DNA from: Escherichia phage JP4
DNA length: 64,000 nucleotides
Strand: one strand, 5' to 3'
Sequence record: PQ330092
This document shows positions 56,924 to 58,743 of this stretch, one piece after another. The notes beneath the pieces were generated by a model. It did not search any database, was not told where the DNA came from, and was given only the letters and a program-made list of their open reading frames with translations. Within the stretch, counting starts at the first letter, position 1. Each line of letters begins with the position of its first letter. The translations under genes and the position numbers were made by a program.

Positions 56924-58021
56924 ATGCCAAACGTAAGTATCAACAAAGAAGAGTTTATTAACCAAATGACTGCTAAGTATGGAGAATTTGACTTCAGTAC
57001 TTTAGTATTCAAGGCAAGTAAGACAACAGTGAAATGCAACAAGTGTGGAAAAGAAAACACCAAACCTGCACTTCGTCACATTGCATGTACATGTGCATCA
57101 TGTTATTCAAACATGTCACAACGTTCAAATAACGACACATTCATCAGTACTGTAGAAACTAAATTTGGAAAAGATAAATTCAAATTTGATAAACTAAATT
57201 ACACTAACGCTATAACAAAAGTAACACTGTTCTGCACTGATAAAGAGCACAACAATTACTTTGAAATCACACCAAATAAATTTCTTTCTGGTAAAGGATG
57301 CCCCGTATGTAATAAAAATGAAGCATATAGTACTGAATCATTCACTGCAAAAGTAAAAGAAAACTATGGTGATGCATTGGACTTGACGAATACTGTTTAT
57401 GTCAATCAGAAAACTAAAGTAACGGTTCATTGCACAAAAGGACATCATGACTGGACGGTAGATCCAAAAACTCTAATCGTCGGTAAAACTGGCTGTGGTA
57501 CATGCTCTGGTAAAGGCGGTCGAAGTACGGAACGTTTCATTGAACTGGTGTCTCCTATCCATAACCATAAGTATGATTATAGCTTGGTTAATTATACTAT
57601 AAGCGAGAATTATGTTGATATTGTATGTCCGATGCATGGTGTTTTCTCCCAACAACCAAAAGCACATATGGCTGGTAAAGGATGTCCATCATGTGGTGAA
57701 TATGGATACCAACCATCAAAACCTGGATATTTCTATGTACAAAAACTAACTAACAATAACAAGACGGTGTACAAATATGGGATCACTGGTGATATGAAAC
57801 GCCGTGTCAACGAACAAAGCCGCAATTCTGAGTTCGAGCATGAAGTACTTATAGAACGCTACTTTGAAGATGGCAATCAACCATTACTGTTGGAAAAGTT
57901 CATAAAGAAATACATTGAAAGTGGTGTGGTAAGTACTGAAGAGTTACCGTCAGGATTTACTGAAACATTTGATGCTAAGTATCTTGAAAGTGTTTTAGAA
58001 ATTGTAAATACTTTTAAGTAA
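56924..58021 (+). CDS. Homing-endonuclease-like protein: four tandem Zn-ribbon modules plus C-terminal T5orf172/GIY-YIG-like domain
   Basis: Repeats ending CNKCGKE, GKGCPVC, GKTGCGTCSGKG, GKGCPSCGEYG; C-terminal GYFYVQKL...KTVYKYGITGDMKRRVNE. Confidence 0.5.
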   Translation: MPNVSINKEEFINQMTAKYGEFDFSTLVFKASKTTVKCNKCGKENTKPALRHIACTCASCYSNMSQRSNNDTFISTVETKFGKDKFKFDKLNYTNAITKVTLFCTDKEHNNYFEITPNKFLSGKGCPVCNKNEAYSTESFTAKVKENYGDALDLTNTVYVNQKTKVTVHCTKGHHDWTVDPKTLIVGKTGCGTCSGKGGRSTERFIELVSPIHNHKYDYSLVNYTISENYVDIVCPMHGVFSQQPKAHMAGKGCPSCGEYGYQPSKPGYFYVQKLTNNNKTVYKYGITGDMKRRVNEQSRNSEFEHEVLIERYFEDGNQPLLLEKFIKKYIESGVVSTEELPSGFTETFDAKYLESVLEIVNTFK

Positions 58022-58044
58022 ACAATCTAAAGGAGTTGACACGG

Positions 58045-58395
58045 ATGTTAACTGTATACAAATTTAACAAAGAAGAGTACTTAAAGAGTCAGTACTCAAA
58101 TATAGAAATAAATGTTCCTTATGGTACGTTAGTTGGATATGATGAAGCCACTGAAACATTGTATTATAATGATGATAGATTGGATTATAGTTTAGATTCA
58201 TTCATTGAAGATATACTTAATACACATACTGAAGATATGTTGTATGAAGAATACATAGACCATTATAGAGAACGTATGTCGGTGCTGCATTCTGATGCTC
58301 CTGTACTAAACATAGCACAAGAACCATCGGAATTTCAGCCACATAATCCTTTTCAACGTTTAATTGATATTGGTTTAAAATTCACTATTAGTTGA
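58045..58395 (+). CDS. Hypothetical protein (about 116 aa)
   Basis: ORF with RBS aaggag before MLTVYKF. Confidence 0.4.
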   Translation: MLTVYKFNKEEYLKSQYSNIEINVPYGTLVGYDEATETLYYNDDRLDYSLDSFIEDILNTHTEDMLYEEYIDHYRERMSVLHSDAPVLNIAQEPSEFQPHNPFQRLIDIGLKFTIS

Positions 58396-58434
58396 TAGAT
58401 AAATATCTCCATATTAATGATGGAGATTGAATCT

Positions 58435-58743
58435 ATGTCACAGATATGTTATGTTATAATAAACTCTGCATGGCCTGACTATGTTAAGATTGGTTTCACT
58501 TCTAAATCTGAAATGACAGAGCGTTTGAGAACGTATCAGACAGCTACCCCGTTTCGTGATTTTGAAGTTTATCATGAAGTTCACTTTGAAGACGCACGTT
58601 TAGCTGAAAAAGAGATACATAAAAGGCTTAAACAAATGAATGCAACTAGACAACCAAACACAGAGTGGTTTAAAATGTCTAAAAAGATAGCAGCAAACAT
58701 CATTGATTCTGTGTGGGATGATATGGATAACGACTTGCTATAG
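58435..58743 (+). CDS. T5orf172 / GIY-YIG-like domain protein (about 103 aa)
   Basis: MSQICYVIINSAWPDYVKIGFTSKSEMTERLRTYQTATPF matches the T5orf172 pattern; start set at ATG after RBS ggag. Confidence 0.6.
   Translation: MSQICYVIINSAWPDYVKIGFTSKSEMTERLRTYQTATPFRDFEVYHEVHFEDARLAEKEIHKRLKQMNATRQPNTEWFKMSKKIAANIIDSVWDDMDNDLL

Follow-up and report, generated by a model that had tools for sequence, protein, structure and literature searches.

The 64,000-nucleotide stretch of Escherichia phage JP4 considered here (sequence record PQ330092; the whole stretch is referred to as the window) contains two modular selfish nuclease genes with the same repeated zinc-finger unit and different cutting domains. 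The first is located directly behind the major capsid gene and combines four zinc modules with a T5orf172/GIY-YIG head; the second is located between two baseplate genes and combines two modules with a Vsr/EDxHD head. We believe with considerable confidence that these are two independent free-standing homing endonuclease genes (HEGs; HEG-A and HEG-B below), in which an N-terminal array of CapR/DUF723/DUF4379 modules precedes a C-terminal nuclease head and which home in mixed infection. This belief relies on observations of several kinds: the architectures and folds, the retention of most catalytic and zinc-ligand residues (minus one Glu in HEG-B), presence in some relatives and absence from others, purifying selection and lateral transfer, alleles of mosaic make-up, and a linkage to recoded flanks. 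A first-pass annotation, made by a model from the sequence alone, had listed the three open reading frames (ORFs) discussed below, and all of them were found where it placed them; the HEG identity of the two nuclease genes was absent from it. The two proteins are composed as follows (aa, amino acids; HMM, hidden Markov model; dN/dS, ratio of nonsynonymous to synonymous substitution rates).

56924..58021, + strand: HEG-A, probable free-standing HEG encoding a protein of 365 aa, in which a T5orf172/GIY-YIG head follows four zinc modules (phrog_681 'endonuclease', 2.6e-77; dN/dS 0.06-0.11)
56936..57112, + strand: module A1, residues 5-63, CxxC...CxCxxC variant (module alignment, HMM)
57122..57319, + strand: module A2, residues 67-132, proposed ligands C104, H109, C126 and C129 (alignment, HMM)
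57323..57514, + strand: module A3, residues 134-197, with the best Pfam DUF4379 and CapR stretches of ORF A (Pfam, HMM)
57521..57703, + strand: module A4, residues 200-260, DUF723-like and nearest to B1/B2, proposed ligands C235, H238, C254 and C257 (Pfam, alignment, HMM)
57704..58018, + strand: head A, ~105 aa, divergent T5orf172 domain with GIY-YIG fold, invariant Y271, K284, G286, I287, R294, E324 and E347
34055..34819, - strand: HEG-B, probable free-standing HEG encoding a protein of 254 aa, in which a Vsr/EDxHD head follows two zinc modules (dN/dS ~0.1)
34616..34795, - strand: module B1, residues 9-68 (alignment, HMM)
34403..34585, - strand: module B2, residues 79-139, above the Pfam DUF723 cut-off (Pfam, alignment, HMM)
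34058..34402, - strand: head B, ~115 aa, Vsr/EDxHD-type PD-(D/E)XK nuclease domain; D176, E187, H193, D213 and K216 kept, V146 in place of a near-invariant Glu

The C-terminal T5orf172/GIY-YIG-like domain proposed for ORF A (56924..58021) is supported by the phrog_681 match, by the GIY-YIG fold and by Pfam T5orf172/MUG113 matches in 19 of the 38 members of its family. Its residues Y271, R294 and E347 are invariant in the 38 homologues and are the putative catalytic residues by analogy with I-TevI and with E180 of Odn. The four tandem module copies described by the first-pass annotation are present; however, their size is ~60-66 aa, with a repeat period of ~63-69 aa, rather than the ~45 aa it gave. 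The ending G-K-G-C-P-x-C, which it ascribed to the module, is correct for modules 2 and 4 of ORF A (GKGCPxC) but not for module 3 (GKTGCGTC) or module 1 (ACTCASC). In the 38 homologues, DUF4379 is matched by 31 proteins, DUF723 by 16 and CapR by 11.

ORF B (34055..34819) had been described as PD-(D/E)XK-like with the same zinc module occurring twice. Two homologous modules are indeed found there, and the head is of the Vsr type within the PD-(D/E)XK superfamily; the HMM searches that the annotation suggested were run, and they assign nuclease families to both heads. DUF723 scores 26.8 bits on ORF B against a cut-off of 20.9. D176, E187, H193 and D213 are invariant in the HEG-B family alignment, their mapping to the published E-D-x-H-D motif being by alignment position alone. 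Nothing useful was matched in NCBIfam.

The six modules (A1-A4 and B1-B2) were aligned, and an HMM built from them was run on the six-frame translation of the window, where it recovers just its six copies, the next best match having E=0.07. The alignment, which the annotation had proposed as a check, extends beyond the cysteines: the N-terminal helix has a conserved Phe, and further shared features are [YF]-D-[YF]-S, a Tyr, K-T-x-V, a Pro and the motif G-K-G-C-x-x-C. The zinc-ligand pattern C-x2-5-[HC] ... C-x2-C is found in 6/6 modules, with a second ligand that is mostly His (C-x2-5-H ... C-x2-C) and cysteines invariant among homologues. The Pfam families concerned are DUF723, DUF4379 ('probable treble clef zinc finger') and the CapR homology domain. 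Sequence-specific, zinc-dependent DNA binding via the cysteines has been demonstrated for PLE CapR alone (PMC8096241), and we presume from homology to CapR that the A and B modules bind DNA as well.

It could be objected that the A and B modules have nothing in common but the spacing of their cysteines, i.e., that they are convergent zinc ribbons and not a common DNA-recognition unit. Module A1 does resemble the others weakly (19-20 bits), and the single-sequence Pfam scores of ORF A are under the cut-offs. On the other hand, A4 shows 41% identity (~50 bits) to B1 or B2, non-cysteine positions included, and is thus nearer to them than to its own siblings (24-30 bits); the joint profile retrieves 34,542 cluster representatives at E-values up to 0.001, roughly 12,700 of them multi-module, in arrays of up to 14 modules; and in the database T5orf172-type and Vsr-type heads bear modules up to 73% identical. 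The A4-B identity, the alignment, the profile retrieval and the closely similar modules on both heads refute the convergent reading, to which we assign practically no probability. What the two genes have in common is thus a homologous zinc module, to which each adds a nuclease fold unrelated to that of the other.

The first-pass annotation suggested that the module was shuffled between two nuclease families within one genome. Such shuffling is seen in the wider gene pool and not between A and B in JP4, since a recent exchange between these two is rejected by their protein identity (at most 41%) and by their DNA matches, which are motifs of at most 51 nucleotides (nt). In the wider pool, the allele of isolate E9.1 has a head with 100% nucleotide identity to that of the window and modules with just 45-48% amino-acid identity, and the modules up to 73% identical on both heads point the same way. 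In the slurp01 allele, the head shows 97% nucleotide identity, the last module 80%, and the other modules 44-48% amino-acid identity. The top 120 database homologues of ORF A have 3-8-module arrays with T5orf172-like heads (48), Vsr-like heads (44) or tails of other kinds, among them canonical GIY-YIG, another Vsr-like type and acidic tails that are not nucleases. A tblastn search with ORF B matched 985 of the 50,697 phage records. The database proteins P0041, P0065, P0071, P0083 and P0120 have 5-7-module arrays followed by long acidic tails without a nuclease motif; these may be HEG-derived DNA-binding proteins, domesticated as CapR was.

The window belongs to an Asteriusvirus, an E. coli jumbo phage with the relatives 121Q and PBECO4; its region 55600-60400 shows 98.4% identity to phage UB and 96% to 121Q. 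Upstream of ORF A the order is scaffolding gene, major capsid gene (55604..56779) and capsid-gene terminator. The elements of the HEG-A locus are as follows (RBS, ribosome-binding site).

56657..56723, + strand: patch of synonymous recoding, nt 1054-1120 of the major capsid gene, in its 3' end; candidate HEG-A target and immunity site
56823..56842, + strand: capsid-gene terminator hairpin; the cassette begins directly past its T-run
56852..58044, + strand: the inserted cassette in full, made up of a promoter, HEG-A and a replacement RBS that serves the following gene; PBECO4 has ~45 nt at this place
56863..56891, + strand: sigma-70-type promoter TTGACA-N17-TATAAT, 12/12, inside the cassette

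The placing of the cluster right after the major capsid gene with a consensus sigma70 promoter is thus accurate, all 12 promoter positions being matched. When homologous positions in relatives were compared, as the annotation had advised, both HEG-A and HEG-B were found in some close relatives and were absent from others. At the HEG-A site, PBECO4 and SD-6 are empty, with ~45 nt in place of the 1.19-kb cassette of the window. In other isolates the same site is occupied by T5orf172 alleles with 3 modules (305-307 aa), by a T5orf172 HEG of 332 aa that is divergent and scores 26 bits with the Pfam profile of this domain, or by a gene of the DUF7487 plus REase type (532-552 aa), so that the site presents a compact case of several nuclease families competing for one insertion site.

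The carriers of the last gene are UE-S1 (L008:1572-3230) and ph0011 (L009:1623-3221). Its parts are repeats of DUF7487, a single zinc ribbon, a region with a weak REase_MTES_1575/Vsr-like match and, at the C-terminus, a further domain of ~170 aa; comparably long tails come after a Vsr-like motif in the unclassified database proteins P0097, P0101, P0106, P0110 and P0114.

The capsid-gene flank was compared in 15 genomes, six with the 4-module HEG and nine others. The C-terminus of the capsid protein is unchanged in all 15, and gene nt 1054-1120 show 13-16 differences, all of them synonymous. The allele of the window at 56657-56723 is present in 6/6 genomes with the 4-module HEG and in 0/9 of the others. 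Relative to the empty-site allele, the 3-module alleles differ in the 5' half of this ~65-nt patch only and the 4-module allele differs in both halves. In E9.1 the first 1,000 nt of the capsid gene are the same as in the window, and 17 differences fall within the last 150 nt.

WPEC3 shows ~90% identity to the window over the 4.8-kb region overall and 99-100% nucleotide identity in HEG-A. Its capsid gene differs from that of the window at 66 places within the first 975 nt and agrees with it throughout the last 200 nt. A co-conversion tract downstream of HEG-A was sought and not found, divergence restarting at the first codons of the next gene. These sequences bear the mark of a cassette that was transferred laterally, with co-conversion of its flank on one side only, and they point to a HEG-A target in the capsid-gene 3' end; the recoded patch is likely to be both target and immunity site. 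Phage UB (L012) differs from the window at 2 positions of the capsid gene and at 4 of the following 1 kb. The window HEG-A shows a synonymous divergence (dS) of 0.24 from the UB copy and is near-identical instead to the copy in the distant WPEC3. Near-identical flanks around diverged HEG-A copies show that replacement of the cassette allele took place independently of the backbone.

Apart from the HEG-linked patch, a second cluster of ~8-10 substitutions relative to the window at ~56530-56560 (capsid gene nt ~927-955) is common to PBECO4, SD-6, SHEFM2K and Ecwhy_1. It may be another recombination tract boundary.

The position of HEG-A directly behind the capsid gene would also suit a domesticated regulator like PLE CapR, whose array binds near the capsid gene and tunes late-gene expression with a head that is inactive or of secondary importance. 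The modules are related to CapR, the ICP1 capsid operon repressor derived from T5orf172 HEGs, and in some database relatives the module array is followed by an acidic tail that is not a nuclease. Nevertheless, the Tyr, Arg and Glu of the head are invariant and under purifying selection, the gene is missing from close, viable relatives, it was moved laterally into a divergent genome at 99-100% identity, it is tied to the recoded flank, and unrelated nuclease genes interchange with it at the same site. We consider a regulatory role unlikely on these grounds and retain the homing interpretation.

HEG-B has one baseplate gene on each side, gp25-like and gp6-like, and the features of its locus are given below.

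34115..34835, - strand: approximate span of the HEG-B insertion as judged against PBECO4, where the site is empty; it separates the gp25-like from the gp6-like baseplate gene
34015..34050, - strand: first 36 nt of the gp6-like baseplate wedge gene, candidate HEG-B target and immunity site (from a small sample)

Among the 43 matching records, HEG-B is present only in 121Q and JNE01; in the other 41, ~720 nt are missing, and the junction is precise. Within the first 36 nt of the gp6-like gene there are 3-6 substitutions that are common to the three HEG-B carriers and absent in three empty genomes. The gp6-like gene of JNE01 has no differences from that of the window in the first 50 nt and then 4-12 per 50 nt. 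The recoded-flank pattern is thus like that of HEG-A, only shorter. A consensus promoter of its own was looked for at HEG-B and not found. HEG-A and HEG-B have independent distributions among relatives, and both are under purifying selection (dN/dS 0.06-0.12).

The 121Q orthologue of HEG-B is gp584 (L007:1356-2120), which RefSeq names 'HNH endonuclease / protein associated with group I intron'; PHROG 559 is likewise labelled HNH. No HNH family appears in the Pfam results for ORF B, whose fold is Vsr-like. The label is unsupported, considering that the fold and the sequence profile are Vsr/EDxHD and that the gene is intergenic, not intron-encoded. The name of the 121Q orthologue looks like an annotation error, which could be corrected.

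The mechanism that we propose is the following. HEG-A would be transcribed from its own sigma-70-type promoter, and in mixed infection its array would bind a long site in the capsid-gene 3' end of a relative without the allele, so that the tethered head could cut nearby. Recombinational repair from the HEG-bearing genome would then copy in the cassette together with the adjoining recoded capsid stretch, whose 13-16 synonymous differences would protect the carrier from its own enzyme. HEG-B would do the same at the junction of the gp25-like and gp6-like baseplate genes, probably as a dimer by analogy with I-Bth0305I. For both genes, the comparisons described above lead us to presume that the modules bind DNA, that the heads are active nucleases, that the target sites lie where we place them and that homing takes place at all. 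Accepted as such, two selfish nuclease genes would explain the local mosaicism around the capsid and baseplate genes of a jumbo phage.

Could both genes be mainly weapons against competing phages or satellites, like ICP1 Odn, with rival DNA destroyed and self-copying incidental? T5orf172 nucleases have been co-opted in this way before, the strong host-type promoter of HEG-A would give early expression, and the proposed targets are essential structural genes of close relatives. We find this very unlikely as the main role: the co-transfer of HEG and flank into WPEC3 and the allele swaps at one site are a footprint of homing and repair and not of pure exclusion. The two roles are also compatible, marker exclusion being a known side effect of homing.

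Several results weigh against the homing interpretation or parts of it. Taken alone, ORF A scores 18.8 bits with T5orf172 (cut-off 20), the match covering only profile positions 1-45 of 101, and it is under the Pfam cut-off of each zinc-module family too. A solved structure matching the module was not found either by sequence search with full-length A and B or by Foldseek of the A model; in the Foldseek search of the full A model against PDB, the zinc modules had no credible match (best TM 0.18). In HEG-B, Val146 (codon 34382-34384) takes the place of a helix-1 Glu that opens the EDxHD motif and is shared by at least 90% of the family. This Val is also present in the 121Q and JNE01 orthologues, with the gene still under purifying selection, and the missing Glu could alter the activity of the enzyme. 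The recoded capsid patch could merely be a co-transferred flank of the donor lineage and not a recognition site, and the flank comparison for HEG-B includes 3 genomes against 3.

Both architectures, as well as the modular principle, have already been published (Netter 2021, Barth 2023, Merk 2025), so that the gain is incremental. The T5orf172 HEGs described by Barth, Dunham & Seed 2023 (PMC10448857) have CapR, DUF723 or DUF4379 zinc fingers in repeated copies; their domains are shuffled, HEGs can replace one another, and they are enriched near capsid genes, which occur in 31% of the surveyed neighbourhoods. HEG-A resembles ICP1 gp53/121/130/165/174, T5-like and other T5orf172 HEGs (PMC10448857; Netter et al. 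2021, PMC8096241) in its N-terminal repeated zinc fingers and C-terminal T5orf172 head. It shares with them the free-standing position beside an essential structural gene, the repeat-mediated gain, loss and exchange of modules, and the use of a site common to other HEGs. It differs from the cases of PMC10448857 in its host, an Asteriusvirus jumbo coliphage ('121Q' and 'jumbo' are not named in that paper). Its head is a divergent subfamily that misses the Pfam cut-off on its own, and its modules are C-H-C-C, nearest to DUF4379/DUF723, compared with the CxxC-24/26-CxC motif of CapR.

HEGs with three to five CapR-like domains and then an EDxHD/Vsr nuclease, with thousands of unannotated relatives, were reported by Merk et al. 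2025 (PMC12350094); the EDxHD family itself was defined by Taylor et al. 2011 (PMC3239194), with I-Bth0305I (PDB 3R3P) as the prototype. Like the HEGs of Merk et al., HEG-B joins CapR-like modules, each of ~60 aa, to a Vsr-like nuclease of ~100 aa on their C-terminal side and, by alignment position, keeps the conserved Asp, His and Asp. Unlike these and I-Bth0305I, it is free-standing and intergenic, not intron-encoded, and it has two modules instead of three to five and Val for the conserved Glu. I-Bth0305I has NUMOD2/HTH motifs and no zinc modules, so HEG-B fits the CapR-like subgroup of PMC12350094.

Two further systems are related in part. I-TevI and the T4 Seg/Mob HEGs also tether a GIY-YIG-fold domain to a DNA-binding region with a zinc finger (established knowledge; PMC8263062, PMC8096241), lie between genes beside a conserved target gene (intronless homing) and co-convert flanking markers; in the present genes, however, the nuclease is C-terminal and a tandem array of one module replaces the combination of zinc finger, NUMOD and HTH. 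ICP1 Odn (Gp88) is a chimeric T5orf172 nuclease whose cleavage of DNA in vitro is lost in the E180A mutant (Barth et al. 2021, PMC8263062). Odn shares with HEG-A the T5orf172 head and a specificity determined by a swappable N-terminal DNA-binding domain; unlike HEG-A, it has a RepA_N domain and serves in anti-satellite defence, has no zinc-module array and is not a homing element.

What is added here is the presence of both architectures in one jumbo-phage genome, the contested site, and a series of swapped-module alleles tied to distinct recodings of the target region. It is tempting to consider the capsid-gene site as a natural allelic series for a per-module DNA-recognition code, with 4-module, 3-module and swapped-module alleles that have an identical head and are each tied to their own ~65-nt recoding; we propose this tentatively and regard it as rather doubtful. 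If each ~63-aa module did read its own block of ~10-16 bp, the arrays would be a naturally reprogrammable DNA-targeting scaffold, in principle like zinc-finger/TALE arrays. The set of swapped-module alleles is a possible test bed for how the widespread zinc-module arrays choose their DNA targets.

The two genes downstream of HEG-A are outside the mobile cassette.

58045..58395, + strand: conserved backbone gene, phrog_15724; relatives start at ATG 58045
58417..58743, + strand: stand-alone T5orf172 domain protein, without a DNA-binding module, fixed in all relatives examined (T5orf172/MUG113, 50.3 bits, cut-off 20)

The mechanical start of the first of them is TTG 58036; the alignment of relatives and the cassette-supplied AAGGAG RBS favour ATG 58045. 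The second is the next-but-one ORF after HEG-A, in which the first-pass annotation correctly recognised a stand-alone T5orf172 domain, as its Pfam score far above the cut-off indicates. It is found alike in relatives with and without the HEG, and its divergence tracks the backbone, the copies in Klebsiella phage fENko-Kae01 and Serratia phage BF being 78% and 69% identical, respectively. It is a fixed backbone gene, not a mobile one, and possibly an old domesticated nuclease. BLASTP of head A against it gave no similarity, and the head A profile gave a weak match (E=0.06) at the K-I-G-x-T...R motif; the solo domain is therefore not a recent copy of head A, and this candidate origin was rejected.

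A minor observation concerns the neighbourhood of HEG-B. The 162-aa lysozyme-like ORF at 35300-35788 (- strand) contains a long stretch that is found, nearly alike, also in the C-terminus of the 887-aa baseplate hub protein at 35825-38488 (- strand). The common stretch reads …EYEGT.{1}.YQ…GY…GKFW.Y.DS.G..TIGYGHL…, and this similarity suggests a lysozyme domain duplicated in the adjacent genes.

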